Positions 4,870 to 58,225 of a stretch of DNA of 64,000 nucleotides are shown in pieces. This DNA comes from Desulfobaccales bacterium. GTDB lineage: Bacteria; Desulfobacterota; Desulfobaccia; Desulfobaccales; 0-14-0-80-60-11. Where the stretch lies: the NCBI GenBank assembly GCA_049696835.1, contig JBAVUP010000161.1, positions 8,726-72,725 on the forward strand. The letters run 5' to 3'. The notes under the pieces are model-generated. The model was not told the origin of the DNA. It made no database searches and saw nothing but the letters and a program-made list of their open reading frames with translations. Numbering within the stretch: the first letter of the stretch is position 1; each line of letters opens with the position of its first letter. A program made the translations under genes and the position numbers.

Positions 4870-4892
4870 TTCAAAGTTCAAAGTTCAAAGTT
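4870..4892. repeat. Heptanucleotide tandem array (TTCAAAG)x3 in the tRNA spacer
   Basis: Direct reading shows ttcaaagttcaaagttcaaagtt. A second mini-array (AACCTTG)x2 lies at 4921-4937. Confidence 0.9.
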
Positions 4893-4944
4893 AGGGCTCA
4901 AGTCCATGAGAAATTAACAAAACCTTGAACCTTGAACAAAAATC

Positions 4945-5020
4945 TGGTAGGCGGAACAGGGCTCGAACCTGTGACCCCCGGCTTGTAAGGCCGATGCTCT
5001 CCCAGCTGAGCTATCCGCCC
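4945..5020 (-). tRNA. tRNA-Val (TAC)
   Basis: Reverse complement is GGGCGGATAGCTCAGCTGGGAGAGCATCGGCCTTACAAGCCGGGGGTCACAGGTTCGAGCCCTGTTCCGCCTACCA. The anticodon loop is CTTACAA and CCA is encoded. Pair 1-72 is a G-U wobble. Confidence 0.93.
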
Positions 5021-5066
5021 GCCCGCGTTATAGTCACCCAAGGCGCGGCTTCTGTCAAGGAGGAAA

Positions 5067-5095
5067 GTGAGCAGTGAGCTGTAAGCAGTGAACAG
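5067..5095. repeat. Heptanucleotide array (GTRAGCW-like)x4
   Basis: Sequence is gtgagca gtgagct gtaagca gtgaaca g. It is the same unit family as 26111-26167, in opposite orientation. Confidence 0.85.
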
Positions 5096-5146
5096 TTTTT
5101 GGCTATATTGGCAAGACTTGATAGTCCGTGGCAAGCTGCTCACAGT

Positions 5147-8877: not shown

Positions 8878-9000
8878 AGAAATTTTCCTCCCCAAACCCC
8901 GAACCGCAGCCGCGTCCAGGGTTTGGCTGTTTTGCTTCTCCGCCGCTCGTCAAGCCTGCATCACAGGTTTAGCGGCGCTGAGGTATGGCCCATCAGGCTC

Positions 9001-9615
9001 TCAGTCCTGATGTTTCGGGAAGGGGATAGCCGCTTCCCGATGGGTGATCACTGCATCAATCAGGCCGTATGCCTTGGCCTGCTCCCCGGACATATAAAAA
9101 TCCCGCTCCGTATCCCGGTTGATCCGGTCAATGGGTTGGCCCGTATGAATGGCCATGATCTCATTCAGTTCCTCCCGGAGACGCAAAATCTCCCGGGCCT
9201 GGATGTCCACGTCCGTGGCCTGCCCCTGGAAGCCGCCCAGGGGCTGGTGAATCAGGATCCGCGCATGGGGCAGGGCAAACCGCTTGCCCGGGCTGCCCGC
9301 CGCCAGGAGCAGCGCCGCCATGGACGCCGCCTGGCCCATACACAGGGTGGCTACCGGGCTCTTGATGTACTGCATGGTATCATATATCGCCATCCCCGCG
9401 GTTACCAGCCCGCCCGGGGAGTTGATATAAAAGTTGATTTCCTTATCAGGATCCTCCGCCTCCAAAAACAGCAACTGGGCGATCACCAGGTTGGCGATGT
9501 CATCGCTCACTATAGTGCCCAGAAAGATGATCCGGTCCCGCAGCAGTCGGGAATAGATGTCGTAAGCCCGTTCCCCCCGGCTGCTCTGTTCCACCACAAT
9601 GGGAATTAACTGCAT
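9001..9615 (-). CDS. clpP: ATP-dependent Clp protease proteolytic subunit ClpP
   Basis: Contains [25 protein letters not shown] and GQAASMAA (catalytic Ser). The likely start is MQLIPIV at 9615, just after the tig stop. Confidence 0.95.
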
Positions 9616-9616
9616 G

Positions 9617-10957: not shown

Positions 10958-11037
10958 GTTCTTAGCTCACCATTATCCTAAAATGTGATCATCATCAGGA
11001 GGGCATGTCCCCGGCCTGGCTCTCCCCCGCCGAGGTG

Positions 11038-13923: not shown

Positions 13924-13958
13924 ATCTTGATCGGCTGATGGCGCGCTGGCACCCGGGC

Positions 13959-18367: not shown

Positions 18368-18397
18368 GGGGTCAGGGATCGGGGGTTAGGGGTCAGG
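18368..18397. repeat. Heptanucleotide array (GGGGTCA-like)x4
   Basis: Sequence is ggggtca gggatcg ggggtta ggggtca gg. It starts 11 nt after the rlmN stop. Confidence 0.8.
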
Positions 18398-18506
18398 TCG
18401 TAGGGCGCGTCTTACGCGCCGACCATGACGGCCATGGGCCGCTGCCCAGACGAATTTTCAGGGCTCATCCAACCCCCGTGAGCTTGCCCCATTCCTGGTT
18501 TTGACT

Positions 18507-18535
18507 GAAACCTGAAACCTAAAACCTGAAACCTG
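18507..18535. repeat. Heptanucleotide array (GAAACCT)x4
   Basis: Sequence is gaaacct gaaacct aaaacct gaaacct g. It ends 2 nt before the stop of the minus-strand gene at 18538. Confidence 0.9.
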
Positions 18536-23967: not shown

Positions 23968-24008
23968 GGTTGTCATGGGTATTCCCTTTAAATAAGTTGG
24001 CCGTTACT

Positions 24009-24065
24009 GTAGGGGCGGACCCATGTGTCCGCCCTTGTTTTTAGGGCGCACACGCAGGTGCGCCC
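24009..24065. repeat. Two adjacent GTAG/TAGG-headed REP-like hairpins
   Basis: The hairpins are gtaggGGCGGACccatgtGTCCGCCc and tagGGCGCACacgcagGTGCGCCcttacaaa. The same design recurs at 34491, 38335, 58299 (inverted), 27011 and 38279. Confidence 0.85.
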
Positions 24066-24190
24066 TTACAAAACTTTGTCAAATTATATCTGGGATGCAA
24101 CACTAGCTGAATCTTTTTGAACTGGCAGAGACAAGATGCGCAAGACCCCCATCTGGGAGCCCCCTTTCGCTCATCCCGGGTCTTGGCTAA

Positions 24191-24218
24191 AAGCTGAAAG
24201 CTGACTGCTGATAGCTGA
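24191..24218. repeat. Heptanucleotide array (NNGCTGA)x4
   Basis: Sequence is aagctga aagctga ctgctga tagctga. It ends 2 nt before the recJ stop codon, so the recJ mRNA carries (UCAGCNN)n right after its stop. Confidence 0.9.
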
Positions 24219-24220
24219 TT

Positions 24221-25927
24221 CTACGGCTTCCCCCAATCCAGCAGCCGCAGGTCCGGGGCGGCCCGTCCCTGATACTGCGATACCCTGGTGCTCAGGGCCA
24301 CATCCAGGGTGCCGGTGAGCGGGTGGCTGGCCCCCCGGTCAAAGGCAATGGCCTCCAGCACCTGCCCGGCCTGGGCCAGTTGCACCCGCAGGTGCCGCTC
24401 TCCCACCACCCGGGACCCCAGGCATTCCACCTCCTGGCACACCAGGACCGGCGCCGGGTTGCCGGGACCGAACGGCCGCAGGGATTCCAGGTGCTGGTAA
24501 AACACGCCGTTCAGTTCCGCCAGCGTCACCTGGGCGTCGACTTTGAGGGTGGGCCGGCGCGGTTGGGGCCCCACCTGCTCGACCACGGCTTGCTCCAGGA
24601 GTTCGCGAAAGTGCGCCAGATTATCCGCCGCCACCTCAAAGCCCGCGGCAAACTCATGCCCCCCGTACTTGTGGAGCGCCTGGCGGCAGGCGTGCAATCC
24701 CCGAAATAAATGAAATCCTTCGACGGACCGGGCGGAGCCCCGGCCCACCCCGTTGGTGAGGCTCACCAGGGCCACGGGCCGGTGATACTCTTCCGCCAGG
24801 CGGGCCGCCACGATGCCGATCACCCCGGGATGCCAGCCCTCGCCCGCCAGGACCAGCGCCGGCCGCGTCCCCAGGCCTTCCCGGCCAATCAGGGCCGCGG
24901 CCACCTGCAGCACCTCCTCTTCCAGGGCCTGACGCTGCCGGTTGAGGTTCTGAAGATAGTTAGCCTGAACCCGCGCCTGTTGCAGATCATCGCTCAGGAG
25001 CAACTCCAGGGCGCACCGGGCCTGGCCCAGGCGGCCGGCGGCATTGAGCCGGGGCGCCAGCTTGAAGACCACGTCCCGGTAAGTGATGGGTTTGCCTTCC
25101 AGCCCCACCACTTCTTTCAGGGCCACCAGCCCGGGACGGCGGCTCTCCTCCAGGACCATGAGCCCCTGGCGCATCAGGATGCGGTTTTCCCCCAACAGCG
25201 GCACCACGTCCGCCGCGGTGCCCAGGGCCACCAGGTCAAGGTACGATCTGAGGTTGGGCTCCCGGCGCTCCCGGAACCAGCCTTCCGCCCGGAGCTCCGC
25301 CCGCACCCCCAGGGCCAAGAGCAGCGCCACCCCCACCCCGGCCAGTTCCCCAAAGGGGTAATCGGAGCCCTGGCGCTTGGGATTGACCACGGCCACGGCC
25401 GGGGGCAGCTCCGGGGGAATCTCGTGGTGATCGGTGATGATCACCTCCAGCCCGTGGGCCTGAGCCCAGGCCACCTCGGAGGCGTCGCTGATGCCGCAAT
25501 CCACCGTCACCAGCAGCCGGGCCCGGGCCGCCAGTTCCTTCAGGGCCTCGAGCTTGAGGCCGTAACCCTCGGTCAGCCGATCGGGGATATAAGGAATACC
25601 GGTAAGGCCTAATTCCCGCAAAAACTGGTACAGCACCGCGGTGGCGGTGAGGCCGTCGGCGTCATAATCGCCGTAGATCGCCACTGCCTCTCCCTGGCGC
25701 ACCGCCCGACCCAGGCGGGCCGCGGCGGTCTCCAGGTCCGGCAGGCCGAAGGGCGGATAGAGGCGCTCCAGGGACGGGTCCAGATACGCCAGGATGTCGT
25801 CCGCGGCGGCGAGCCCCCGATTCAACAGGATGCGGGCCACCAACGGCGGCAGATTATGGCGGGCCGTGACCTCAGCCACCAACTCCGGCTGATTCGGATA
25901 TACCTGCCAGGCCTTCTTACGGCGCAA
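24221..25927 (-). CDS. recJ: Single-stranded-DNA-specific exonuclease RecJ
   Basis: DHH-family motifs are present: DYDADG, ITDHH and the DHHA1 motif YGGHEFAAG. Confidence 0.93.
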   Translation of the reverse strand: MRRKKAWQVYPNQPELVAEVTARHNLPPLVARILLNRGLAAADDILAYLDPSLERLYPPFGLPDLETAAARLGRAVRQGEAVAIYGDYDADGLTATAVLYQFLRELGLTGIPYIPDRLTEGYGLKLEALKELAARARLLVTVDCGISDASEVAWAQAHGLEVIITDHHEIPPELPPAVAVVNPKRQGSDYPFGELAGVGVALLLALGVRAELRAEGWFRERREPNLRSYLDLVALGTAADVVPLLGENRILMRQGLMVLEESRRPGLVALKEVVGLEGKPITYRDVVFKLAPRLNAAGRLGQARCALELLLSDDLQQARVQANYLQNLNRQRQALEEEVLQVAAALIGREGLGTRPALVLAGEGWHPGVIGIVAARLAEEYHRPVALVSLTNGVGRGSARSVEGFHLFRGLHACRQALHKYGGHEFAAGFEVAADNLAHFRELLEQAVVEQVGPQPRRPTLKVDAQVTLAELNGVFYQHLESLRPFGPGNPAPVLVCQEVECLGSRVVGERHLRVQLAQAGQVLEAIAFDRGASHPLTGTLDVALSTRVSQYQGRAAPDLRLLDWGKP

Positions 25928-25940: not shown

Positions 25941-26078
25941 CAGTCGCCAGCTATCAGTGATCAGTAGGCAGTCTTGCGTAGGGTGCGTTTTACGCACCAT
26001 TATACTCGTTCCCAAGCTCCTGCTTGGGAACGATGAAATTTCAGCCCAAGCTCTGCTTGGGCACCTTATCGAGTAATT
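25941..26078. repeat. Composite: (CAGNNNN)x5 array + GTAG-REP hairpin + ~80-nt double-hairpin element (copy A)
   Basis: The array is cagtcgc cagctat cagtgat cagtagg cagtctt. It is followed by gtagGGTGCGttttaCGCACC. Then come GTTCCCAAGCtcctGCTTGGGAAC and GCCCAAGCtctGCTTGGGC. Confidence 0.85.
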
Positions 26079-26110: not shown

Positions 26111-26167
26111 ACTGCTCACCGCTTACTGCTTACTGCTCACTGCTCACTGCTTACTGCTCACCGCTCA
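26111..26167. repeat. Heptanucleotide array (ACYGCTY)x8
   Basis: Eight consecutive 7-nt units directly abut the TAG stop of the 26168..26884 gene. On its mRNA they read (U[GA]AGC[AG]G)n. Confidence 0.92.
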
Positions 26168-26884
26168 CTACTCCACCGTCTCCCCCGGTTTCAAGGGAAT
26201 CACCGTGATCTCCGGCTCGCCCTTGAGACGCTCGATAAGCTCTTCCGCGGTGCCGGTGAGCACCGGGAAGGTGCCGTAGTGCATGGGGATCACCCAGCGG
26301 GGCTTCAGCATCTTGCAGGCCAGGGCCGCCTCCAGCGGGCTCATGACGTAATGGCTGCCGATGGGCAGCATGGCCAACTCCGGATGGTAGAGCTCCCGGA
26401 TGAGTTCCATGTCCTTGAAGACCGCGGTGTCCCCCGCGTGGTAGGCTACGAAGCCGTTGGGAAACTCTATGACAAAGCCGCCGGGGTCGCCCGCGGCGAT
26501 GAGTTTGCCCCCTTCCTCCACCGCCGAGGAATGCACCGCCTGGGTCATGGTGACCTTACACCCGGCGATGGCCATGGTCCCCCCCTTGTTCATGCCGATG
26601 GTCCGGGGGGCCCCCTGCCCTGCCAAAATCACCGACAGCTCGTGGATGGCCACCAGCGCCGCGCCGCTCGCCTTTGCCACCGCCACGGCTTCCCCCACGT
26701 GGTCGCCGTGGCCGTGGGTCACCAGGATGAGGTCCACCCGGCCCACCTTGTCCACCGGCGTATTGAACAGCGGATTACTGAGCCAGGGGTCGATGAGCAC
26801 GCTCACGCCCCCGCCCGTTAATTTGAAGGCCGCATGGCCCAGGAAGGTGATGCTGACCCCGCGGCCGATCCTGACGTTTGTCAT
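26168..26884 (-). CDS. Metal-dependent hydrolase, beta-lactamase fold (UPF0173-like)
   Basis: Contains ITFLGHAAFKL, VLIDPW and LILVTHGHGDHVG. Confidence 0.82.
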   Translation of the reverse strand: MTNVRIGRGVSITFLGHAAFKLTGGGVSVLIDPWLSNPLFNTPVDKVGRVDLILVTHGHGDHVGEAVAVAKASGAALVAIHELSVILAGQGAPRTIGMNKGGTMAIAGCKVTMTQAVHSSAVEEGGKLIAAGDPGGFVIEFPNGFVAYHAGDTAVFKDMELIRELYHPELAMLPIGSHYVMSPLEAALACKMLKPRWVIPMHYGTFPVLTGTAEELIERLKGEPEITVIPLKPGETVE

Positions 26885-27030: not shown

Positions 27031-27109
27031 ATTTATCTTCCGTCAGCTTTTGAAAGCTTAGAGCTGACCGCTTCCTTACCCCACCATAGCTTCCAGAGCA
27101 TCCAGATTT

Positions 27110-27189
27110 TTTATACTCGTTCCCAAGCTCCTGCTTGGGAACGACATTTTTCAGCCCAAGCTCTGCTTGGGCACCTTATCTAGTAATTT
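27110..27189. repeat. Double-hairpin element (copy C)
   Basis: Near-identical to 26000-26078: ttatactcgttcccaagctcctgcttgggaacga...cagcccaagctctgcttgggcaccttatc. Confidence 0.9.
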
Positions 27190-27252
27190 TCATGAGAACC
27201 CCCGGCAGGCATGGTCCACCGAAAAATTTTAACAACTTCAGAACGCGGTCTT

Positions 27253-27287
27253 TTCCTGAAAGCTAAAAGCTGACCTCTGACCGCTGC
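27253..27287. repeat. Heptanucleotide array (NNSCTRA-like)x5
   Basis: Sequence is ttcctga aagctaa aagctga cctctga ccgctgc. It ends 1 nt before the K+ channel stop codon. Confidence 0.85.
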
Positions 27288-27288
27288 C

Positions 27289-28281
27289 TTAACCCACCAT
27301 GGCTTCCAGGGCATCCAGATTTTTCCGCAGCCCCAGGGCGATGAGGGTGTCTCCCGCCAGAATGGGGGTCTCATGGCTGGGGTTGAAGAGCATGTCGCCG
27401 TCGGCCCGTTTAATCGCCACCAGGATGAGGTCCAGCTTTTGGCGGATTCCCGAGTCCTTGAGCGGCACTCCCAAGAGAGGCGAAGTCTGGCCCACCGCGA
27501 TCTCTTCCATGCTCCATTCCACCCCCTCCTTCATGGCCAGTTCCATGAAGGTTACCACCGTGGGATGGAGAATGGTGTGGGCCATTTTCTGCCCCCCCAT
27601 ATGATAGGGCGACTCTACCTTGTCGGCCCCGGCCCGCAGGAGTTTCTGTTCCGCACCCGGTTCTTCCCCCCGGGCCACGATGAAGAGCTGCGGGTTGAGG
27701 CTGCGGGCGGTTAGGACAATATAGACGTTGTCGGCGTCCGAGGCCACCACCGCCACCAGTCCCTTGGCCCGCTCGATCCCCGCCTCCAGCAGGACCTCAT
27801 CCCGGGTAGCGTCCCCCATGATGAAGTAATAACCTAGTTCCTCCAGCCGGGTGATTTGCTCCGGATTTTTATCGACGACCACCAGGGACAGGCCGCGGCC
27901 GGTGAGCTGCCGGGCGATGATTTCCCCGATGCGCCCGAAGCCGCAGATGATGTAATGATTTTTCAGGCTCTTGATATGTTTGATCAATTTGCGCTTTCCT
28001 AAGACCGCCCGCAGTTCTCCTTCGATCACCACCCGGGCCAGGGAGCCGACGATATAGAGCATGACCCCCATGCCGGCGAGGATCAGCACCATATTATAGA
28101 TGCGCCCCACGTGGTCCAGGGGGTGAACCTCCCCGTAGCCCACGGTGGTCAGGGTGGTCACCGTCATGTATAGGGCGTCAAAGAAATTCCAGCCTTCCAG
28201 CCAGACGAAACCCAGGCTGCCGCCCACCAGCAAGGCCACCAGGCAGGCGGTCCACTGGGCGATTTTACGGAAGGTTACCAT
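27289..28281 (-). CDS. Potassium channel with RCK/TrkA-N domain
   Basis: Two TM helices flank the selectivity filter TTVGYGE. A Rossmann-type RCK domain follows (IICGFGRIGEIIARQL). Confidence 0.9.
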   Translation of the reverse strand: MVTFRKIAQWTACLVALLVGGSLGFVWLEGWNFFDALYMTVTTLTTVGYGEVHPLDHVGRIYNMVLILAGMGVMLYIVGSLARVVIEGELRAVLGKRKLIKHIKSLKNHYIICGFGRIGEIIARQLTGRGLSLVVVDKNPEQITRLEELGYYFIMGDATRDEVLLEAGIERAKGLVAVVASDADNVYIVLTARSLNPQLFIVARGEEPGAEQKLLRAGADKVESPYHMGGQKMAHTILHPTVVTFMELAMKEGVEWSMEEIAVGQTSPLLGVPLKDSGIRQKLDLILVAIKRADGDMLFNPSHETPILAGDTLIALGLRKNLDALEAMVG

Positions 28282-28538: not shown

Positions 28539-28880
28539 TCAAGACTCTCCCAACTCATTGAGGATGGCAGTTACATGCTTCTTTAATTCCGGCAACTCTC
28601 GCTCCACCACATTCCAGACCGGCGGCAGGTCGATGTCGAAATAGTCATGCACCAGAATATGACGCATTCCGATGATCTTCGACCACGGAATTTCGGGATG
28701 GCGATTTCTCACCGATGCTGACAACGAACGGCAGGCTTCGCCGATAATCTGGAGATGGCGAAGGAACCATGCCTGGATCAGTTCATCCGCCTGGAAAGCG
28801 GTACGTCCTTTGGCGACATATTTCCCAATATGCTCAATGGCTTCAAGGATATCGCGCAATCTTTCGCGATCATCCCTCAT
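28539..28880 (-). CDS. hepT: HepT-like (DUF86) ribonuclease toxin
   Basis: Contains [14 protein letters not shown] and an R..IVHDY-type motif ([10 protein letters not shown]). It overlaps the upstream MNT gene by 4 nt. Confidence 0.85.
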
Positions 28881-29167
28881 AACGGCACCGCCTCTTGCAG
28901 CACGCGGTCACGGATGCGCGTTTTTAAGCCTCTCTCGGTTACCACATCAACCTTACACCCCAAAAGGTCCTCCAGGTCCGCCAAAAATCCACCTAAATCC
29001 AAAAGGCTGCGGTTCGGCTCCATTTCCACCAGCACATCCACATCGCTAGCCTCATCCGCCTCCCCTCGGGCCACGGAGCCAAAAATACGGACGTTATAGA
29101 CCCCGTGCTGAGCGGCGATTTTCAAGATTTCTTGGCGTTTCTCTTGTATCACCTTATTCAGGGCCAT
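28877..29167 (-). CDS. mntA: MntA-type minimal nucleotidyltransferase antitoxin
   Basis: Has the GS...D.D nucleotidyltransferase motif ([21 protein letters not shown]). The ATG at 29167 (MALNK) is preferred over the TTG at 29194. Confidence 0.85.
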
Positions 29168-29252
29168 GACCGGACCCCTCCTCCGGATTAGCAAACCATA
29201 ATCTCCACTATGACAAAATGGCGGGGCGGTGGCTCACCGCCCCGGTGACGGT

Positions 29253-34439: not shown

Positions 34440-34467
34440 TTTTCAGTTTCCGGTTTTCAGTTCTCAG
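34440..34467. repeat. Heptanucleotide array (TTTYCRG-like)x4
   Basis: Sequence is ttttcag tttccgg ttttcag ttctcag. It begins 6 nt after the hisB stop. Confidence 0.85.
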
Positions 34468-34490
34468 TTAAGGAAAATTCGTGGTTTCCT

Positions 34491-34590
34491 GTAGGGGCGG
34501 ACCTGCGTGTCCGCCCTTACAAATCCTCGTTCCCAAGCTCCTGCTTGGGAACGCTGATTTTTGGCACAAGCTCTGCTTGGGCACCTTAAT
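34491..34590. repeat. GTAG-REP hairpin + double-hairpin element (copy D)
   Basis: The REP hairpin is gtaggGGCGGACctgcgtGTCCGCCcttacaaa. It is followed by cGTTCCCAAGCtcctGCTTGGGAACg and a GCACAAGC/GCTTGGGC hairpin. Confidence 0.85.
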
Positions 34591-34603
34591 CCCTGGCTCT
34601 TTA

Positions 34604-34649
34604 CTGACAACTGACAACTGACAACTGACAACTGACAACTGGGTACTGG
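34604..34649. repeat. Heptanucleotide array (CTGACAA)x5 plus 2 degenerate units
   Basis: Five perfect units (ctgacaa) are followed by ctgggta ctggc. The array directly abuts the pirin TAG stop. Confidence 0.93.
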
Positions 34650-35564
34650 CTACTGACCACCGCTCTTAATAAACGTGCCCTGCCGATACTCCTCAAACGC
34701 CACCCTGAGTTCCTCCTCCGTATTCATCACAATGGGGCCGTACCACGCCACCGGCTCGCCGATAGGCTTGCCCGAGACCAGCAGAAACCTCACCGGCTCT
34801 GCCTCCGTGGACACCATGATCCGGTCGCCGTCGCCGAAGAGGGCCAGCATGCCGTTACTGACAAACGGCTCCCATTGCATATCGAAGTAGTTTCGCCCTT
34901 CCACCTCATGGGAAAAAGGCTTCTTCTCCTGGCAGAAGTACCCCTGGCCCCCGATGACATAGGCAAACACGGTGTGGCCCCGGACGGTGGGATGGGTGAA
35001 GGCCGTGCCCGCCGGCACCGTGACGTCCAGGTACTCCGGCTCGGTGACCACATCCTTGACCGGCCCGGTCACCTCCCCTACCCTGCCGGCAATAATCTTG
35101 AGGGTGACGCCCCCGGACAGTGCCACCTCCGGGATGTCCTGGGTTTCCACCCCCCGGTAGCGGGGCGCCATCATCTTCTGGGCCTTGGGCAGATTGGCCC
35201 ACAACTGCAACCCGTACATCACCCCTTGCGGGTCCCCTTTCGGCATTTCCTGGTGGATGATGCCGCGGCCCGCGGTCATCCATTGCACGTCCCCCGAGGA
35301 AATCACCCCCTTATTCCCCAGGCTGTCGCCGTGCTCCACGTCGCCCCGGAGCACGTAGGTGATGGTCTCGATGCCCCGGTGCGGGTGCCACGGGAAGCCC
35401 TTGACATAATCCTCGGGATTGGTCGACCGGAAATCGTCCAGCAGGAGAAACGGGTCGAACTGCGGCACCTCGGCAAACCCGAACACCCTGTTTAAATGCA
35501 CCCCTGCCCCCTCGAGGGTGGGTTTGGCCTTCAACACCTTGCGGATATTTCTGGTGGTGGTCAT
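34650..35564 (-). CDS. Pirin-family protein
   Basis: Bicupin with HPHRGIETITYVLRG..EH.DS.G. Confidence 0.9.
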   Translation of the reverse strand: MTTTRNIRKVLKAKPTLEGAGVHLNRVFGFAEVPQFDPFLLLDDFRSTNPEDYVKGFPWHPHRGIETITYVLRGDVEHGDSLGNKGVISSGDVQWMTAGRGIIHQEMPKGDPQGVMYGLQLWANLPKAQKMMAPRYRGVETQDIPEVALSGGVTLKIIAGRVGEVTGPVKDVVTEPEYLDVTVPAGTAFTHPTVRGHTVFAYVIGGQGYFCQEKKPFSHEVEGRNYFDMQWEPFVSNGMLALFGDGDRIMVSTEAEPVRFLLVSGKPIGEPVAWYGPIVMNTEEELRVAFEEYRQGTFIKSGGQ

Positions 35565-35755
35565 GGTGGCCCTCCATTGATTCTTTGCCAGCTCTTCTAA
35601 GAACTATAAGACCGACTATTCCAAAAATCAAAAACGTGAGATTTGCCATAAAAATTCGCCCGTAATGGCCAATAAAGCCCCAGAATTTACCTTTCCCAAT
35701 AATTTCTGGCTTTCTTCATATCCCCAATTTTTCCAAAAGACCCTCCTCCCTCCCC

Positions 35756-35784
35756 TTGTTTTTCCGAAAATGATGCTTATTTAT
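35756..35784 (+). promoter_or_regulatory. Sigma70-type promoter of ncRNA unit 1
   Basis: TTGTTT-N17-ATTTAT, positionally homologous to the stronger promoter of unit 2. Confidence 0.5.
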
Positions 35785-35790
35785 ATGTTT

Positions 35791-36150
35791 GCTAGGACGG
35801 TCAGTCTGAGCACCGCAAGGTTACGGGTTGACGGCCGTTCGGCTGCGCCCGAACGAGGGTAGGATCGCCCTCCGGACTGAACCTCACGGCAACCTGCTTT
35901 GGCCCTGAGCAGCAGGCCGGCCAATGATCCAAAGGTTTTAAGCATGGCCGGCGGGGCGCTGATAGCCGGAAGCGGCCATAGATGCCCGCTCCGCGGCCGA
36001 AGCAGTGAAGGCGACCACGGAACGTTCCGGACGTTTGTTCGGCGACTTCCTGCGTGGAGAATGAAAAAGGTTCCGTGATCTTGGGAAGCCGGGGAATCCC
36101 AGATGAATCCTCCTCCTGCTAAGGAGGTCTCTGGTTCCCCGGCTTTCTTC
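35791..36150 (+). ncRNA. Candidate structured ncRNA, unit 1 (~360 nt), class unknown
   Basis: Bounded by a promoter and by the terminator GCCGGGGAA...TTCCCCGGC+TTTCTTC (36088-36150). The 113-nt 5' core is nearly identical to unit 2. It has multiple GC hairpins and no credible ORF. Confidence 0.6.
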
Positions 36151-36230
36151 GTGCAGCCCCCTCGCCTACCTGCCCTCTGAGGGCCGGGTCTCAGCCACTT
36201 AAGATTTTGTTATAAAACTTCCCCACCCCC

Positions 36231-36259
36231 TTGATTTTCCGGGAAAGATGCGTTATAAT
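36231..36259 (+). promoter_or_regulatory. Sigma70-type promoter of ncRNA unit 2
   Basis: TTGATT-N17-TATAAT, with a consensus -10 hexamer. Confidence 0.6.
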
Positions 36260-36265
36260 ATATAC

Positions 36266-36623
36266 GCTAAGATGTTCAGTCTGAGCACCGGAAGGGTTAC
36301 GGGTGGACGGCCGTTCGGCTGCGCCCGAACGAGGGCAGGGTCGCCCTCCGGACTGAACCTCACGGCAACCTGCTTTGGCCCTGAGCAAAGGCGGCCATCG
36401 ACCCGCGGCAGCAAAGATGGCTCAGCCGGGTGCTGGAGCCGGAAAAGGCCCAACAGCCTGCTCCGCTGCCGAAGCAGCGAGGACACCGCGCAACCGTGCG
36501 GACCTGGCTCCGCCGAATCCTTCGGAGGAATGGATAACGGTTTCGTGGTCCTGGGGAGGCCGGGGCATTCAGGAGAGTCTCTTCGCAGAGCGGAGACGCC
36601 TGAATCCCCGGCTTTCTTTGTTT
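36266..36623 (+). ncRNA. Candidate structured ncRNA, unit 2 (~358 nt), paralog of unit 1
   Basis: Bounded by a promoter and by the terminator GCCGGGGCATTCAGG...CCTGAATCCCCGGC+TTTCTTTGTTT (36559-36623). It shares the 5' core (36275-36387) and the GCCGAAGCAG island with unit 1. Confidence 0.6.
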
Positions 36624-36884
36624 ACCCCCTATGTTCCTGTCTTCTGAGCATCCCAGGCGCGCCTAGGTCTGTTTCCTGGCTTCCGCCCCCAGCCTCAAAA
36701 TAGTGGTCATTGCTGTTATCTCTGCTGGCTATCTCCCTCGCCTCGCCTAAACTGAAATTGTGTGACGCCATCGCCTCAGAAAGCATTACCCCATGACGTA
36801 CGTTTCAAACTATTATTATGCCCGAGTGGCACAGGCTTCCAGCCTGTGAAAATTCCGGAGGACTTTTTTCCTCATTCCCAAGCT

Positions 36885-37016
36885 CCTGTTCCGAAAAGTC
36901 TTTCGTAGGGTGCGTTCTACGCACCATCTGCTTTCGGCAGCGGCGGGCACCGAGGCCCGTCCTACCGACTTTTCATAGTTTCGGGTGTTCCGAAGAAACA
37001 TGAATTACTGCTTTGG
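36885..37016. repeat. ~135-nt structured dispersed repeat, copy 2 of 3
   Basis: See 19092-19217. This copy includes GTAGGGTGCGTTCTACGCACC and the hairpin GTGTTCCGAAGAAACAT. Confidence 0.85.
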
Positions 37017-37179: not shown

Positions 37180-38244
37180 ATGAAACGCCGAGAGTTTCTG
37201 CGGCAGATGACGCTGGCCCTGGCCGCGGCCTGGACCGCCGGCCGCCTCACCTGGCCCCAACCCGCTCAGGCCCAAGCCCCCGACCTGCGCCTGGCCCTGT
37301 TGGCCGACGCCCACCTCAAATCCGGGGATGACCGCCGCGCCGAGGCCCTCGCCCTGGCCCGGGCCGTGGCGGAAATCAAGGCCCTGACGCCCCCGCCCGA
37401 CCTGGTATGTTTCGCCGGCGATCTGGCCCACCAGGGCCGTCCCGACGCCCTGGACCTGGGGAGAGAAATCCTCTCGGACCTGCCCGCACCGCTGCTGGCC
37501 GTGCGGGGGGAAGGGGATCACGGCCCCAGGGAGTCCGCCTGGGGCCGGCGTTTCGGCGAGCCCCGCTTCTCCCGGCCTTACCGGGGCGCTCACCTCATCG
37601 GCCTGGACACCGTCCCGACGCCCACGCCCCATGGCCCGGTCTTCGAGATCGGCCCCGCCCAACGCCGCTGGCTGGCCGCGGCCCTGACGGGGTTGGACCC
37701 CGCCACGCCTCTGGTCATCCTATCCCACGCCCCCCTGGCCCGCCTCTTCCATCCCTGGCAGCAGTGGACCAATGATGCCCCGGAGCTCGCCCCACTGTTC
37801 TCCTCTTTCCATCGGGTTCTTTGCCTGTATGGACACGTGCATGGGGCAGGGGTCGGTAATGCAGGGGCCAGGGGTCAGGGGTCAGAGTTTATCGGCAAAA
37901 TCCCCCCTAGCCCCCTTTTAGCAAAGGGGGGAATGGCTATACCCTTCTTCCCAGGAACAGGGGAGTCTGAAAATCCCCCTTTGGCAAAGGGGGATTTAGG
38001 GGGATTTAAAGGGGCCTGGATTAATTTCAATGACGGCATTCTATTTCCCTGGGCCACAGAAAACAGCAAACAGAAAACAGAAAACCACATTTCATTACCC
38101 GCCACCGCCTGGCCCCGACCTCAGGCCGTCCAGGGCACCCCGGCGGTCCCGCGCCCCGGCCTGGGCCCCCACGGCTGCGGCTGGGCCTTGCTCACCTTAA
38201 GTTCCACGCAAGGAAATTTTCAGCCTTACCTGTGGCGGGCTTGA
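37180..38244 (+). CDS. Tat-signal metallophosphoesterase carrying an in-frame repeat insertion
   Basis: Twin-arginine leader MKRREFLRQM. Metallophosphoesterase motifs are LLADAHL, FAGDLAHQG, LSHAPL and LYGHVHG. About 80 low-complexity codons (37846-38085) follow the GHVH motif. Confidence 0.8.
   Translation: MKRREFLRQMTLALAAAWTAGRLTWPQPAQAQAPDLRLALLADAHLKSGDDRRAEALALARAVAEIKALTPPPDLVCFAGDLAHQGRPDALDLGREILSDLPAPLLAVRGEGDHGPRESAWGRRFGEPRFSRPYRGAHLIGLDTVPTPTPHGPVFEIGPAQRRWLAAALTGLDPATPLVILSHAPLARLFHPWQQWTNDAPELAPLFSSFHRVLCLYGHVHGAGVGNAGARGQGSEFIGKIPPSPLLAKGGMAIPFFPGTGESENPPLAKGDLGGFKGAWINFNDGILFPWATENSKQKTENHISLPATAWPRPQAVQGTPAVPRPGLGPHGCGWALLTLSSTQGNFQPYLWRA
37846..38085 (+). repeat. Composite intergenic-type repeat embedded in frame in the metallophosphoesterase CDS
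   Basis: Contains heptad arrays (aggggcc aggggtc aggggtc; cagaaaa cagcaaa cagaaaa cagaaaa). Also contains hairpin modules (ATCCCCCTTTGGCAAAGGGGGAT) of the same type as the intergenic repeats at 33110-33200. Confidence 0.75.
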
Positions 38245-38278: not shown

Positions 38279-38358
38279 GGTGGGCAATGCCCACCCTACA
38301 TTAAATATATCATGTTAAATTACCTGGTTGACCGTAGGGGCGCAGCGGGCTGTGCCCT
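38279..38358. repeat. Pair of REP-like hairpins in opposite orientation
   Basis: GGTGGGCAatGCCCACCctac is the inverted head and gtagGGGCGCAGCGGGCTGTGCCC is the direct head. Confidence 0.8.
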
Positions 38359-38439
38359 TTATGGAAGGCTTTAAGTGTGAATTCTGAGGATTTAACAGAG
38401 GTGCCTTACCTGCGGGTCAACTTTCCCATGCTTCAGTCT

Positions 38440-38474
38440 TGGCTGAAAGCTGACCGCTGACTGCTGAGAGCTGC
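38440..38474. repeat. Heptanucleotide array (NNGCTGA)x5
   Basis: Sequence is tggctga aagctga ccgctga ctgctga gagctgc. It ends 4 nt before the hflX stop. Confidence 0.9.
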
Positions 38475-38478
38475 TTTG

Positions 38479-51799: not shown

Positions 51800-52015
51800 G
51801 AAAATATTTCCCCTTTTGTGGGTCGGGCTCTTACGAGCCCTGACCAGCAAGAGCAGTAATTCATTGGGGGGAGGGCCATGGGCTGTTTTGTAAGGGGCCC
51901 CTGCCCCTCCCTCAAGCCCCCCTTCCAACCCCCAGAAGGAGGGCCATCCACGGCCCAAGAGAGGTAATAGACGAAACCGAGAATCACCCCCATTAATTTT
52001 ACAGGAGGGTTTTTT

Positions 52016-52300: not shown

Positions 52301-52376
52301 GGGGAAGATAAGTTGATTGCGGGCAGGCGGGGTTGCCACGCCCCGCCTTACCCGGCTTTTTGGCGCTCACCATTAA

Positions 52377-52413
52377 GGGATTGGGGGTGGGGGTCTGGGG
52401 GAGGGGGTAAGGG
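52377..52413 (+). other. G-quadruplex-forming motif
   Basis: GGG-att-GGGGG-t-GGGGG-tct-GGGGG-a-GGGGG-taa-GGG: six G-runs with loops of 1-3 nt. A mirrored C-run tract lies at about 51895-51935. Confidence 0.6.
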
Positions 52414-52538
52414 CACTTACAAAAAGCCCTTAGCCCCATCCCCCAGTTTCTTAGCGGAAAGACTAAGGCCGCAGGCCTTAGCTCTTTCCTGCAAAAAATG
52501 TTATCTTTTCTTATACCTAATTCCGATTTAACCTTAGT

Positions 52539-54533: not shown

Positions 54534-54631
54534 AAACAGGGTTCAGGGGTTATCGCTTAGGGTTAGGAATCCGTGGGGTGCACATCGCGCCCCTGGTTTT
54601 TTCTTGCAAGAAGGGCGGGGGACGCCGGTTG

Positions 54632-55744
54632 TCAGTCTTTTTTACCCCTGATCCCCTTTTCCTTTCCTGCCATACCCTTGACCCCCTCTAGGTCGCCGGA
54701 ATCCTCCAGCCTGAGAAACTCTGCCAGGAGTTGTTTTTGTTTGTCGGAAAGCCAAATAGGGGTTTGCAGGTCCGCGATCACCACCAAATCCCCGGGGGCC
54801 TTGCCCCGCAGGCAGGGCAAGCCCAGGCCGGGCAAGCGGAAGGTGGCCCCGGGCTGAGTGCCGGGGGGAATCGCCAGGCTGGTTTGGGCGGTCAGGGTGG
54901 GAACCTCCACTTCCGTCCCCAAGGTGGCTTCCACGAAAGAGAGTTGGGTCCGATAATAGAGATCCTTCCCCTTGCGAGTGAAGACGGGATGAGGGGTGAC
55001 ATACATTTCCAGGTAGAGGTCACCCGGCGGCGCCCCGTTGATTCCTGCTTCGCCTTCGCCCCGGAGCCGCAGGCGGGTGCCCGTATCCACCCCGGGGGGG
55101 ATGCGCACCTGGATCTGCGTCTTTTCTTTGGTGATCCCGGTTCCCTGGCAGGCGGCACAGGGAGAGGCGATGACGGTGCCGACCCCCTGGCATTGCGGGC
55201 AGGTATTGAGGATTTTTAGGAGCCCCTTGGACTGGCTCACCTGGCCCGTACCCTGGCAGAGGGGGCAGGCAAGGCGCTGGCTCCCGGGTTCGGCCCCACT
55301 GCCCTGACAGCGGCGGCAAGGGGCGCGCCGTTCCACGCTCAAGGCGGTGTTCAGGCCCCGGGCGACGTCATCCAGGGTCACCACCACCCGCTGCCGCAGG
55401 TCGGCGCCGGGGTGGGGCTCATCCGGCCGGCCGGGGCCACGCCCGAACCCGAAGAAATCCTCGAAGGCCTCCCCGAAGGAGCTGAAGATATCCTCGAAGC
55501 CGTTGAAACCGCCCACATCCAGGCCCGCCAACCCGGCATCGCCATAGAGGTCGTAAAGCTGGCGCTTTTCCGAGTCGGCCAGCACCTGGTAGGCCTGGGA
55601 AATCTGCTTGAATTGATCCTCCGCCACCCTATCGCCGGGGTTCTTGTCCGGGTGATACCTGAGAGCCAACCGCCGGTAGGCGATCTTGATTTCGTCCAGC
55701 GTGGCCTCTCGCGAGACCTCGAGGATCTCGTAATAATTCCTCAT
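54632..55744 (-). CDS. dnaJ: Molecular chaperone DnaJ
   Basis: J-domain [34 protein letters not shown], a G/F-like region and four Cys pairs (three CxxCxGxG plus the variant CRRCQGSG). Confidence 0.92.
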
Positions 55745-55870
55745 CCCGAAGTGACCGTAACCCCTTGAGGATTAAAGATGGCTTTTCACCTTGACATATG
55801 CCCTTAAATGTGAGCATCGGTCTACCCCTTGTCAAGGACGGCGGCAGGATGTTGGCGGGGAGCCGGCGGT

Positions 55871-56176
55871 TTACTCGGAGTGGGGAACCAGTCGGCGGAG
55901 GCGATCCGTCAGGTCCGGGGACAGGTCGTGGACGGCCACCACTTTGGCCCGGCTCTGGGCGCCCAGGGTGAGTTTTAGGGCATGCTTGGGGAGGTCAAGG
56001 CTGCGGGCCAGAAAGGCGATGAGTTCCCGGTTGGCCGCGCCTTTTTCCGGGGGCGCGGCCAGGCGCACTTTGAGGCGGTCGCCGTGCAGCCCTACCACCT
56101 GGGTACGCTGGGCCCCGGGCACCACCGTCAGGCGCAGCACATATCCCTGGCGGGTGGGTTGAAAAAAGGGGGCCAT
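55871..56176 (-). CDS. yggU: YggU/DUF167-family protein
   Basis: LKVRLAAPPEKGAANRELIAFLA motif. It is adjacent to yggT, as in many bacteria. Confidence 0.85.
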   Translation of the reverse strand: MAPFFQPTRQGYVLRLTVVPGAQRTQVVGLHGDRLKVRLAAPPEKGAANRELIAFLARSLDLPKHALKLTLGAQSRAKVVAVHDLSPDLTDRLRRLVPHSE

Positions 56177-56194
56177 GGAGCGGCAGAGACCCGG

Positions 56195-56494
56195 TCAGCC
56201 TAGGCGCTGGGCCAGGTCCCAGAGGGTGGAGACCAGGAAGCGCTGCAGGAATACAATGGCCAGCAACACCAGGATGGGGGAGAGGTCAAGACCGCCGAAG
56301 ATCAAGGGGACCCGGCCCCGGACCCATCCCAGCACCGGCTCCGTGATGTTGTAGAGGAACCGGACGATGGGATTATAGGGGTCGGGATTGACCCAGGAGA
56401 GCAGGGCCCGGGCGATAATGATCCACATGTACACGGTCAGGGCCAGATCCAGGATGGAGGTCAGGGCTTCGAGCAGGTGTTTCACGGCAAACAT
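56195..56494 (-). CDS. yggT: YggT-family membrane protein
   Basis: IIIARALLSWVNPDPYNPIVRFLYNITEP motif. The start is trimmed to MFAVKH at 56494. Confidence 0.85.
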   Translation of the reverse strand: MFAVKHLLEALTSILDLALTVYMWIIIARALLSWVNPDPYNPIVRFLYNITEPVLGWVRGRVPLIFGGLDLSPILVLLAIVFLQRFLVSTLWDLAQRLG

Positions 56495-56757
56495 TCCCCA
56501 GGTCTCCGCAATCGTAAGTATTTCATATCTATATAGGCTCCGGACCGGGTACTTGTCAAGGCCTGACCGCCGGCGCGGCGCCGGGATCCCGCGCCACCGG
56601 GGCCAGCCGGGTTTCGTCAATGTTCTAAGGTTCCGACGCAACCCATTGCGGAAGTGCGGGTCTTTTTCTAAAATTGACAGTACGGCTTATGGTCTGGCCC
56701 GGGTAGTTCGCCTCCCGGCTGACGTCGGCCGGTAAATCCTGGCGGGAGAACATCGAG

Positions 56758-58029
56758 ATGGCCCCGGTGCGGTTTTCCACCTTTGCAGCCTTGCGCCACC
56801 GGAATTTCCGGCTGTACTACTTCGGCCAGCTGATCTCCCTCACCGGCTCCTGGATGCAATCCATTGCCTTTAGCTGGCTGGTCCTGGTGCTCACCAATTC
56901 CGCGTTCTACCTGGGTCTGGTGGGAGCCCTCCAGACCCTGCCGGTGTTGCTCTTTTCCTTTCTGGGCGGGGTGGTGGCCGACCACACCCACAAGCTCAGG
57001 TTGCTCTTTTTAACCCAGGCCGTCCTCATGCTTCTGGCCCTGGCCCTGGGAGTGCTGGTGGATATCAAGCTGATCCAGGTCTGGATGCTGTGCGTCCTGG
57101 TCTTTCTGTCTGGTACGGCCATGGCCTTCGATATCCCGGTGCGCCAGGCCTTCATCGTGGAGCTGGTGGGTAAGCCGGACCTCCCCAACGCCATCGCCCT
57201 CAACTCGACGTTGTTCAACGCCACCCGGGTGGCGGGCCCGGCGGTGGGGGGGGTGGTCATCGCCGCGGTGGGCATGGCCAACTGCTTCTATCTCAATGCC
57301 GTCAGCTTCCTGGCGGTGCTCGTGGCCCTGGTGCTCATGCAGCTGCCCCCGACCCAGCCGGCGACCTGGACCCCCTTCGTGCGGGCCTGGAAAGAACTCC
57401 TGGATTACCTGCTGGAGCGCCGGGAACTCAAGCTGGTCCTGGTGCTCATGACCACGGTGGCGGTCCTGGCCATGCCCTATTTCGTGCTGCTGCCCATCCT
57501 GGCCCGGGATACCCTGGGGGTGGGACCCGGCGGCTTCGGGCTCCTCATGGCCACGAGCGGGGTGGGAGCCTTTGCGGGGGGCCTCACCCTGGCCCGGCGC
57601 CTGCAACATCACCCGCCCATGCCCTCGTTTCTGGCGGGCCAGGGCCTGTTTCTCCTGGGGCTGATGGGGTTGGGGCTCTGCCGCAACTATTACGCCGCCC
57701 TGGGCTTTATCTCGCTGGCCGGGTTCGGTATGGTGACCCAGCTGTCCACCGGCAACAGCCTGCTCCAGCTCAACGTGCCCGACGCCCTGCGGGGGCGCAT
57801 CATGAGCCTGTTCGGCCTGATCGTCATGGGCTTTGCGCCGTTGGGCAGCATCCTTTACGGCGGCGCAGCCCACTTCGTGGGGGCCGGCCCGGCCATCACC
57901 GGCGGCAGCTTTCTGGCGGCGTTGGTGGCGGGCTTCGTGCTCTGGAGGAACCCGGAACTGCGCCACTTCACCTTCAGCGAGCCTGAACCGCCGACGGCCG
58001 ACGCCATCCGGCCTACCATAACTCCGTAA
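56758..58029 (+). CDS. MFS transporter
   Basis: About 12 hydrophobic segments, an N-terminus FRLYYFGQLISLTGSWMQ, and a GG..AD loop. Confidence 0.88.
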   Translation: MAPVRFSTFAALRHRNFRLYYFGQLISLTGSWMQSIAFSWLVLVLTNSAFYLGLVGALQTLPVLLFSFLGGVVADHTHKLRLLFLTQAVLMLLALALGVLVDIKLIQVWMLCVLVFLSGTAMAFDIPVRQAFIVELVGKPDLPNAIALNSTLFNATRVAGPAVGGVVIAAVGMANCFYLNAVSFLAVLVALVLMQLPPTQPATWTPFVRAWKELLDYLLERRELKLVLVLMTTVAVLAMPYFVLLPILARDTLGVGPGGFGLLMATSGVGAFAGGLTLARRLQHHPPMPSFLAGQGLFLLGLMGLGLCRNYYAALGFISLAGFGMVTQLSTGNSLLQLNVPDALRGRIMSLFGLIVMGFAPLGSILYGGAAHFVGAGPAITGGSFLAALVAGFVLWRNPELRHFTFSEPEPPTADAIRPTITP

Positions 58030-58196
58030 TTTTCCCCCTTGAGCCCGGTCAGGCGGCGCTGCCCTGTGCCGTTCAGGGGAAAAATCGCGCTTCCGAACCG
58101 CCAGGTGGCTGATTTATCTCGATTATTAGCCGCCAGGCCTCGTCACCTGGCCGCTTTTCTCTCGCATGGGTGCCGCTTCTGTGACGCATTCATACC

Positions 58197-58225
58197 GTTT
58201 TCTGTTTTCTGTTTTCTGTTTTCGG
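58197..58225. repeat. Heptanucleotide array (GTTTTCT)x4
   Basis: Sequence is gttttct gttttct gttttct gttttcg g. It lies at the left edge of the low-GC island. Confidence 0.9.

Follow-up and report, generated by a model that had tools for sequence, protein, structure and literature searches.

Tandem arrays of heptanucleotide units are scattered through a 64-kb stretch of DNA (hereafter the window) from an uncultured Desulfobaccales bacterium of the phylum Thermodesulfobacteriota, a member of a group related to sulfate reducers. The window holds 17 such arrays, and nine of them start between -6 and +11 nt relative to a stop codon, with the trinucleotide CAG on the sense strand of the gene that has just ended. 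The same placement and orientation recur in related genomes, where the arrays change in length and in unit sequence at conserved sites while a 4-nt core (CAG and the next base) is constrained and the 3-nt spacer is variable. The arrays are lineage-wide heptanucleotide microsatellites, belonging to the same class as the short tandemly repeated repetitive (STRR) sequences and other bacterial heptamer arrays.

Arrays in the window were located with Tandem Repeats Finder (TRF) and a scan for self-similarity at a lag of 7 nt, degenerate ones being recognized by eye. TRF reports period-7 arrays at 4868, 4921, 5066, 18505, 24186, 26111, 34603, 37862, 38056, 38442, and 58197, while those at 18368, 25941, 27041, 27253, 34440, and 54541 are weaker or degenerate and were picked out by eye; two of the latter (25941 and 27253) are additionally detected by a test for chains of CAG. 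The weak members are 4921, with 2.4 copies, 27041, and 54541. By one or another of these means, a period-7 array was found at or next to every position listed in a preliminary description of the window, and the gene names given there agree with Pfam (Lon, RlmN, DUF3192, RecJ, MBL-fold hydrolase, TrkA-type K+ channel, HisB, pirin, HflX, and UvrB).

The nine arrays at stop codons follow genes on both strands. Three lie on the + strand, namely a (GGGGTCA)-type array at 18368..18399, 11 nt past the rlmN stop and followed by a hairpin with a GTAG head resembling a repetitive extragenic palindromic (REP) element; (TTTTCAG)x4 at 34440..34470, 6 nt past the hisB stop and likewise followed by a REP-like hairpin; and a degenerate (CAGGGKT)x4-5 at 54537..54569, 3 nt past the uvrB stop. 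On the - strand, (CAGGTTT)x4.4 at 18505..18535 begins 2 nt past the stop of a DUF3192 gene, (TCAGCNN)x4.7 at 24186..24218 begins 2 nt past that of recJ and is followed by AAGAC, (GTRAGCR)x8 (equivalent to CAGTRAG), running from 26111 to ~26167-26173, begins right at the stop of an MBL-fold hydrolase gene, and (TCAGNNN)x4-5 at 27253..27286 begins 2 nt past that of a K+ channel gene and is followed by AAAAGAC. Also on this strand are (TGTCAGT)x7.7 at 34603..34655, which overlaps the pirin stop (the TAG lies within a unit CAGTAGC), and (TCAGCNN)x5 at 38440..38474, which begins 4 nt past the hflX stop and is again followed by AAGAC. The 3′ flanks and the sense orientation of the CAG thus confirm, for all nine genes, what the preliminary description had claimed; its distances to the stops also stand in outline, but are off by 1-4 nt for a few genes (2 rather than 1 nt for the K+ channel, 3 rather than 7 nt for uvrB, and an overlap for pirin). 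Its broader picture of arrays planted after stops applies to these nine, but the arrays at 37862 and 38056 lie inside an open reading frame (ORF) and the one at 58197 is 167 nt from the nearest stop.

Related loci (labelled below by L-numbers) were collected via relatives of RecJ, giving a first set of 586 kb, window included, and, independently of it, 504 kb of metagenome loci as a second set. Genes were called with a codon-usage log-odds caller trained on the related loci, whose start codons are approximate. Across the first set, 35 arrays fall in 30 kb of convergent spacer, 45 in 62 kb of co-directional spacer, and 8 in 41 kb of divergent spacer, against 16 in 439 kb of coding DNA, so that the density is ~0.7-1.2 per kb in co-directional and convergent spacers vs. 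0.04 per kb in coding DNA. Computed from these counts, the departure of the three spacer types from an expectation proportional to length gives a chi-square of ~25, and the preference for convergent and co-directional spacers is the pattern expected if arrays attach to the 3′ ends of genes. Half of the 80 arrays in such spacers (40) start no more than 11 nt from a stop codon, where a uniform distribution of each array within its own spacer predicts 8.6.

The orientation is equally biased. Among stop-adjacent arrays with CAG on one strand only, 18 have it on the sense strand and two on the antisense strand; 34 of 41 stop-adjacent arrays have a G+T-rich sense strand, the strand that reads outward from the gene, and on this outward strand G exceeds C in 28 arrays while the opposite is found in 10. 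Since the loci are orthologous regions of related genomes, the independent sample is small, which weighs against a functional reading, and the arrays were collapsed by the family of the upstream gene into 14 families. After this step, CAG is sense in eight families and antisense in none (p = 0.008), and 12 families have a G+T-rich sense strand as opposed to none with an A+C-rich one (p = 0.0005). Non-random placement and strand bias, for which the preliminary description had proposed a genome-wide check, held in 586 kb of relatives. A replication-strand cause of the orientation was considered and rejected, because sense arrays only a few hundred bases apart can lie on opposite strands, as do the neighbors 18368 and 18505, and 34440 and 34603.

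The period itself is far from what chance would give. In the window, a scan at different lags finds eight strict arrays at period 7, whereas each of the remaining periods between 4 and 12 yields 0-3, and there are nine chains of at least three CAG at an exact spacing of 7 nt and none at spacings of 5, 8, 10, 11, or 13. Among trinucleotides, CAG/CTG shows the clearest excess at period 7 (9 vs. 0), GGG/CCC giving 11 vs. 4.8. The view of the preliminary description that the arrays form one period-7 family with a CAG core is supported. The related loci come from metagenome-assembled genomes labelled Desulfobaccales, Desulfobacca, Syntrophobacterales, or Thermodesulfobacteriota, whose RecJ proteins share 71-87% amino-acid identity with that of the window, reaching 93% in a metagenome contig. 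The 586-kb set contains 117 period-7 arrays vs. 2-11 at periods 5, 8, 10, and 11, the 504-kb set contains 150 vs. 3-9 at other periods, and CAG chains in relatives number 81 at a spacing of 7 vs. five at other spacings. No excess at period 7 is seen in outgroup loci (Eisenbacteria, Clostridia, and others), most of which have almost no arrays, and a few distant genomes also have heptamer arrays, such as L031 (Thermoflexia) and L104. Present in two sets of relatives and absent as an excess from the outgroups, the arrays are a lineage trait and not a peculiarity of the window. More than 40 unit types are represented among the arrays. Array density differs between relatives, L015, L018-L021, L024, and L036 being rich in arrays and L001, L006, and L023 poor.

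A second class of arrays, which does not appear in the preliminary description, abuts start codons in the orientation opposite to that of the stop class. In the window, it is represented by the + strand array (CAGTNNN)x5 at 25941..25975. Seen from the sense strand of recJ, this array is (ACTGNNN)n, and it adjoins the recJ Shine-Dalgarno sequence, 13 nt before the TTG start. The site upstream of recJ bears arrays in many species, including (AAAACCG)n, (AAAACTG)n, (GCTGAYA)n, and (CACTGCT)n, the last often merging into GGAGG. Among start-adjacent arrays of the 586-kb set, three are outward and none inward. A single geometric rule covers both classes, in that the strand with the CAG, which is rich in G+T, always points outward from the gene that it adjoins. 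Heptamer arrays also stand just upstream of recJ in distant loci, namely (ATTAGCG)x8 at 9517-9571 of the Thermoflexia locus L031, ACTGCTY units at 9957-9987 of L032 (a deltaproteobacterium with 49% RecJ identity), and ATCATGA units at 9934-9972 of L104. A 2022 preprint on Nostoc places heptamers before recF and recO and calls their role unresolved; both the distant recJ cases and these may be a coincidence in array-rich genomes.

Comparison of closely and more distantly related loci indicates how the arrays evolve. Between contigs of 97-99.7% identity, arrays show length differences of +14, -14, -30, and ~+7-8 nt (+14 nt between L024 and L082, -14 nt between L020 and L095, and ~+7-8 nt between L017 and L079), and most arrays are identical between such pairs. 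The indels of 7n nt among them support the idea of the preliminary description that the arrays are prone to slippage, for which it had proposed a comparison of unit number between strains. At larger distances the sites persist, and in species whose RecJ identity is 71-93% arrays are still found past the recJ stop as well as ahead of the Shine-Dalgarno sequence of this gene. An array directly at the recJ stop is present in about half of the species, and its unit is TCAGCNN in the window and L062, CGGTTTT or CAGTTTT in L002, L014, L016, L025, L027, L058, L079, L084, and L090, CAGTAGC in L011 and L012, CAGTGGC in L028, CAGTRAN in L018, L024, and L036, and GGGTTYT in L009, L010, L013, L064, L067, and others. 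Unit turnover spares the C[A/G]GT core, and GTAAAAGAA, a flank outside the repeat, is kept as well. In L018 and L024 the recJ ORF continues into the array, where a TGA inside one of the units closes it.

Constraint within the unit can also be measured directly. In 124 distinct CAG arrays, mismatches to the array consensus amount to 4.7-7.5% at unit positions 1-4 and 12.4-12.9% at positions 5-7 (chi-square 55, p = 4e-10), whereas pure slippage followed by neutral mutation predicts equal rates, so that the dependence on position counts against pure neutrality. The copy number is mostly 3-5, with a mode of 4.

Two further observations concern the relation of arrays to one another. The recJ (24186-24225), hflX (38436-38478), and K+ channel (27250-27290) arrays, all on the - strand, have their unit variants in the same order (TCAGC followed by AG or GG, then TT, then TT) and share the flank (C)AAGAC, and the recJ and hflX copies match at ~36 of 41 nt when the printed sequences are compared by eye; common origin, gene conversion, or convergence may account for this likeness. 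In some relatives, two arrays of complementary units face each other, such as (CAGTAAC)n and (GTTACTG)n, giving long potential hairpins between convergent genes (L018 11703-11785; L024 2948-3036; L036 7284-7362, 9133-9212, and 10766-10840).

The surroundings of the stop-adjacent arrays follow a typical order, in which the stop codon is followed by 0-11 nt, often purine-rich, then by 3-8 units, and then by an A-rich tract (AAAAGAA, AAGAC, or AAAGAG, with 39% A in the 12 nt past the array). On the 3′ side of the arrays there is often a hairpin, either REP-like with a GTAG head or of another repeated type. Directly downstream of the uvrB array there is a hairpin with a T-run at 54575-54593 that resembles an intrinsic terminator, and the hisB array is followed by a REP-like hairpin and then by a hairpin with a T-run at 34528-34553. 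Lying between a stop and a T-run hairpin, these two arrays should be part of the 3′ untranslated region (UTR) of the mRNA, as judged from their position. Consensus terminator-like sites are no commoner than in shuffled sequences, and a convincing T-run hairpin was seen only after uvrB and hisB. Minimum-free-energy folds of the nine 3′ flanks revealed no common structure involving the arrays, and selection for unstructured RNA was not detected when units were permuted at the same composition (on average a fraction of 0.56 of the permutations is as stable or more stable); the folding energy of the arrays is -0.127 kcal/nt vs. -0.101 for shuffles.

The two arrays at 37862..37885, (CAGGGGY)x3.4, and 38056..38085, (CAGAAAA)x4.3, both on the + strand, are coding and not intergenic. 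They lie in frame in an ORF for a metallophosphoesterase with a Tat signal (37180-38244, +), between the GHVH motif, which the 37862 array directly follows, and a conserved C-terminal block SLPATAWP...GCGW, and they encode the peptides ..AGARGQGS.. and ..TENSKQKTEN.., respectively. Five orthologues (L019 3518-4477; L020 4378-5343; L021 4970-5935; L029 1706-2833; L003 2248-3141) have arrays at the same site, all in frame, and four of the five possess an additional array, also in frame, in a different loop where the window has none. The total length of the arrays in this gene is always a multiple of 3 nt. In the window, the two arrays are separated by ~170 nt of extra palindromic repeat DNA (CCCCCTTT(A/G)GCAAAGGGGG), itself in frame; relatives have both arrays without this insert. 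In-frame arrays of this kind imply a generative process at the DNA level that acts wherever the product is tolerated and is not intrinsically tied to 3′ UTRs.

In the literature open to searching, no description of such arrays was found for Desulfobaccales, and the arrays are best placed as a further example, in this order, of oriented heptamers near gene ends that are known from other bacteria. The preliminary description had taken heptamers that abut stops in a fixed orientation to be undescribed, which is incorrect, since Rehm et al. (2015; PMC4692102) reported GGGAATC and GGGGA(C/T)T heptamers in Xanthomonas and Nostoc that occupy the coding strand up to 50 bp past stops and the non-coding strand ahead of ORFs, with their function described as unknown. 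Their repeats and the present ones are alike in being dispersed 7-nt tandem arrays that are over-represented in non-coding DNA and depleted between divergent ORFs and within ORFs, in that some arrays overlap stop codons and about four units are favored, and in that length and sequence vary among related genomes at the same intergenic sites. They differ in that the present core is CAG(N) rather than a G-tract, in their phylum, and in the tighter placement, 0-11 nt from the stop as compared with a 50-bp bin. G-tracts of the type described by Rehm et al. (2015) occur only in the arrays at 18368, 37862, and 54537, so that a minority (CAGGGGY) could form G-quadruplexes, most units being TCAGCNN, CRGTTTT, or GTRAGCA.

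A second close parallel is offered by the oriented TAACTGA repeats of marine Beggiatoaceae, cyanobacteria, and Bacteroidetes (MacGregor, 2015; PMC4679880), which like the present arrays are intergenic heptamers of 2-6 copies, oriented and abutting ORF boundaries. The reverse complement of TAACTGA is TCAGTTA, which contains the TCAG/CAGT core, and the ACTGNNN array at the recJ Shine-Dalgarno sequence resembles TAACTGA in placement and orientation; ACTGACA also occurs within the 34603 array. An array of the exact TAACTGA unit was found only in the relative L020 (CAGTTATCAGTTATCAGGTATCAG). In Maribeggiatoa one unit dominates and lies mostly before starts, whereas the clade studied here has many unit families, mainly just after stops. 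In Geobacter metallireducens, also formerly a “deltaproteobacterial” genome, the published account (PMC2700814) lists 15 sites of five MTYCTGA heptanucleotides and 49 sites of four GGACCGG, annotated as putative binding sites of global regulators and often arranged as opposite-strand pairs, with no adjacency to stops mentioned in the text consulted. The reverse complement of MTYCTGA, TCAGRAK, shares the TCAG core, and, as far as sequence likeness can tell, a TCAG/CAGT core would thus be common to TAACTGA, MTYCTGA, and the present arrays, which we consider notable. Heptanucleotide arrays have been familiar in bacteria for decades; they are the most abundant of the long simple sequence repeats (LSSR) with 5-11-nt units in many bacteria, and polymerase slippage has been proposed as their source (Mrazek, 2007, as cited in PMC4679880 and PMC4692102).

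The likeness to cyanobacterial STRR that the preliminary description pointed out is apt, both being dispersed tandem heptanucleotides with several unit families per genome. STRR are defined in heterocystous cyanobacteria, with the units CCCCAGT, TTGGTCA, and CAACAGT, two of which contain CAGT. The features by which LSSR or STRR-type repeats are recognized are all present here, namely exact 7-nt head-to-tail units in at least three copies, dispersal mostly in non-coding DNA, and variation of unit number between strains. Strict membership in STRR was rejected, as the host belongs to Desulfobaccales, the units differ, and the window contains no site of the highly iterated palindrome HIP1 (GCGATCGC), which itself indicates that the host is not a cyanobacterium.

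As to what maintains the arrays, the following scenario seems to us as apt to be right as wrong: being driven by slippage, confined to gene boundaries, and oriented outward, they would be transcribed UTR modules that are kept as periodic platforms for single-strand binding. Slipped-strand mispairing adds and removes units and would thereby supply and resize arrays, which survive almost only outside coding DNA, at gene boundaries. Arrays between a stop and a terminator-like hairpin would, judging from position, be transcribed into a 3′ or 5′ UTR, and the RNA would then display CAG and the next base every 7 nt, usually three to five times, with a free 3-nt spacer in between. The putative reader would be an RNA-binding protein that is oligomeric or has a 7-nt footprint, and selection on the core and on the orientation at gene ends would retain the arrays. 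The conserved 4-nt core and the variable 3-nt spacer are consistent with such a platform.

Two systems may serve as working models for the reader, although neither is put forward as an identified partner. HutP binds in the leader of the Bacillus hut operon to three XAG triplets separated by U4 spacers, of which only A and G are recognized (PMC2425495), and this register of XAG-N4 repeats matches the CAGUUUU, GAGUUUU, and UAG-type units of the present arrays, an analogy and nothing more. The CAG chains do contain at least three XAG with 4-nt spacers; CGG and CTG units do not fit. The cold-shock protein CspB prefers the heptanucleotide GTCTTTG/T (PMC1904285), and a single cold-shock domain covers ~7 nt, with a preference for T-rich heptamers (PMC1904285, PMC1636342). 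HutP sites are confined to one terminator in a 5′ leader and do not stand after stops throughout a genome; no HutP or cold-shock protein has been linked to the arrays, and none of the scanned proteins of the 64-kb window has a domain of the HutP type or of a ring-shaped binder.

Several points weigh against a platform for RNA binding. No protein that binds the arrays has been identified, many units (CGGTTTT, CTGTTTT, AACTTTG) break the NAG rule, and the unit families are very diverse for one reader protein. The arrays are no less structured than permuted units, and given the lack of enrichment of terminators, inclusion in a transcript can be inferred for only two of the nine. The arrays in the metallophosphoesterase gene, in turn, are evidence of a DNA-level process that places arrays wherever they are tolerated, and an amplification mechanism that depends on the core could conserve it in place of function.

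The platform can be extended into a clade-wide “gene-boundary code,” which we think unlikely, in which a dedicated oligomeric single-strand-binding protein, similar to HutP or TRAP or built from cold-shock domains, would read CAGN every 7 nt. Its targets would be transcripts that run out of gene bodies (sense ones at the 3′ end of a gene, antisense ones at its 5′ end), and it would thereby control what happens once translation has terminated, for instance 3′-UTR stability, termination or antitermination, and the suppression of read-in and antisense transcription. If this were true, the shared TCAG/CAGT core would point to one mechanism across phyla and provide a function for STRR-type repeats.

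The foremost alternative, possible in our estimation but doubtful, is that the arrays are neutral by-products of 7-nt replication slippage, purged from coding DNA, promoters, and divergent spacers and surviving between stop and terminator. Slippage has already been discussed for heptamers (PMC4679880, PMC4692102), and the indels of 7n nt between strains, the high diversity of units, and the depletion of divergent spacers and coding DNA all agree with it; it also explains well the de novo arrays in a coding gene with their lengths in multiples of 3 nt. To account for the orientation, it calls on a strand-asymmetric process, such as untranslated G+T-rich transcripts that leave the gene body and are prone to R-loops, or on directional growth halted at the ORF boundary, and the fact that the GT-rich strand reads outward at stops as well as at starts could follow from one such geometric or mutational rule. 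What a neutral origin accounts for poorly is the persistence of arrays at orthologous sites down to 71-75% RecJ identity, at which neutral microsatellites should have decayed, together with the 2-2.5 times greater conservation of the 4-nt core relative to the spacer, the conserved non-repeat flank GTAAAAGAA, and the 40 arrays close to stops where uniform placement within spacers predicts 8.6. Were the arrays neutral after all, they would still provide hypervariable markers and a source of in-frame variation in protein length, and they would confuse the annotation of gene 3′ ends.

Another origin, which we regard as quite unlikely, would make the arrays dispersed copy-and-paste elements or the ends of miniature mobile elements that insert beside stops. 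The common order of unit variants and the AAGAC flank of the recJ, hflX, and K+ channel arrays would suit such elements, as would the REP-like GTAG-head or other repeated hairpins that often follow arrays and the ~170 nt of palindromic repeat DNA flanked by the two arrays of the metallophosphoesterase gene. Terminal inverted repeats, target-site duplications, and an associated transposase were not found, however, and orthologous arrays change their units in place instead of being swapped along with their flanks; strains differ in unit number and not in the presence or absence of a whole element, and the relatives carry both coding-gene arrays without the 170-nt insert.

An action at the level of DNA or during transcription has also been considered and is in our view very unlikely, through G-quadruplexes, through R-loops, or through a directional insulation that separates incoming transcripts of an A/C-rich, Rho-loading type from outgoing G/U-rich ones. 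The CAGGGGY arrays (18368, 37862, 54537), with three or four G-tracts, are reminiscent of the G-quadruplex-forming repeats of PMC4692102, and the richness of the outward strand in G+T (34 of 41 stop-adjacent arrays) and in G over C (28 vs. 10) also speaks for such an action, with the same outward rule at starts. Most units, by contrast, cannot form a G-quadruplex (TCAGCNN, CGGTTTT, GTRAGCA), the bias of C over G on the inward strand is just moderate, and a period of 7 bp is unlike the helical repeat of DNA. Rejected as a general explanation is the buffer proposed in the preliminary description, providing UGA, UAA, or UAG in every frame past the stop codon for termination or ribosome rescue, for although the hydrolase array (UGAGCAG/UAAGCAG)n has stops in three frames and the recJ ORF of L018 and L024 ends at a TGA within a unit, all sense frames are stopped in only one of nine window arrays (that of the hydrolase) and four of 41 clade arrays, 26 of the 41 lack any sense-frame stop, and the antisense strand is the richer one, with all-frame stops in seven of nine and 15 of 41.

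Whichever of these readings is right, the clade gives a clean handle on the matter, owing to the tight abutment to stops, the strict orientation, the conserved core, the persistence at orthologous sites, and the in-frame coding arrays, and these features turn the question of function vs. slippage into concrete tests.

The remaining arrays of the window stand apart from the stop class. On the - strand, (AACTTTG)x3.6 at 4868..4892 lies in the spacer between tRNA-Val and tRNA-Asp, ~10 nt upstream of tRNA-Asp, and is a variant with CAA in the unit, and the short (CAAGGTT)x2.4 at 4921..4937 lies 8 nt 3′ of tRNA-Val. Next to them, (AGTGAGC)x4.4 at 5066..5096 has its CAG on the + strand and is placed between the lon stop (5147, - strand) and the 5′ end of tRNA-Val (5020), antisense to both. 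Relatives have arrays with an AACTTTG-type unit and no tRNA nearby, and a link between this unit family and tRNA genes was rejected for that reason; an Rfam scan of the window matched three tRNAs only. Between the genes for the K+ channel and the hydrolase there is a decayed TCAGCNN-like array (27041..27070, -), recognized by eye and lying under the detection threshold. Finally, (GTTTTCT)x3.9 at 58197..58223 (+) lies downstream of an MFS transporter gene whose stop is at 58029, its T-rich strand being the sense strand of that gene.

The window and its relatives also contain several families of dispersed hairpins. REP-like elements, of which GTAGGGCGCGTCTTACGCGCC and GTAGGGGCGGACCTGCGTGTCCGCCC are examples, consist of a GTAG(G) head and a GC-rich palindrome; they are found in the window at ~18400-18425, 24005-24035, 25978-26000, 34490-34520, 36897-36925, and 38335-38360 and in many related loci too, sometimes as inverted pairs (L019, L025, L081). 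The GTAG-head form is the signature of REPs tied to REP-associated tyrosine transposases (RAYT), and no RAYT gene was seen in the window. A second family, CGTTCCCAAGCTCCTGCTTGGGAACG and its relative GGTGCCCAAGCAGAGCTTGGGC, often with a T-run after it, occurs at 26010-26035, 27117-27144, 34528-34553, and 34560-34585, as well as in L016, L020, L027, and L079, and these hairpins may serve as terminators. Yet another miniature repeat family is formed by G5/C5-rich inverted-repeat elements (TTGGGGGAGGGGG...CCCCCTCCCCCAA), which lie in spacers throughout the clade, at ~51900-51960 and 52380-52410 in the window and after recJ in L015, L026, L029, L080, L087, L091, and L092.

Three other features of the window deserve mention. 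Two tandem copies of ~430 nt, 82% identical, occupy 35700-36170 and 36190-36660 on the + strand, each behind a promoter-like TTGATT-N17-TATAAT; the first ~115 nt past the promoter are almost identical, and each copy ends in a hairpin and CTTTCTT. They contain no convincing ORF and gave no Rfam match even at E<=1, and are a candidate pair of undescribed non-coding RNAs. At 58541-61585 (-) there is a 1014-aa ORF with a RelA/SpoT-type nucleotidyltransferase domain, whose GC content at third codon positions is 0.48 vs. ~0.8 in its neighbors and which lies beside an AT-rich spacer; it was probably acquired horizontally. Between the fructose-1,6-bisphosphatase and K+ channel genes, at 28539-29194 (-), lies a pair encoding a HepT-like RNase and an MNT nucleotidyltransferase, of the toxin-antitoxin type.

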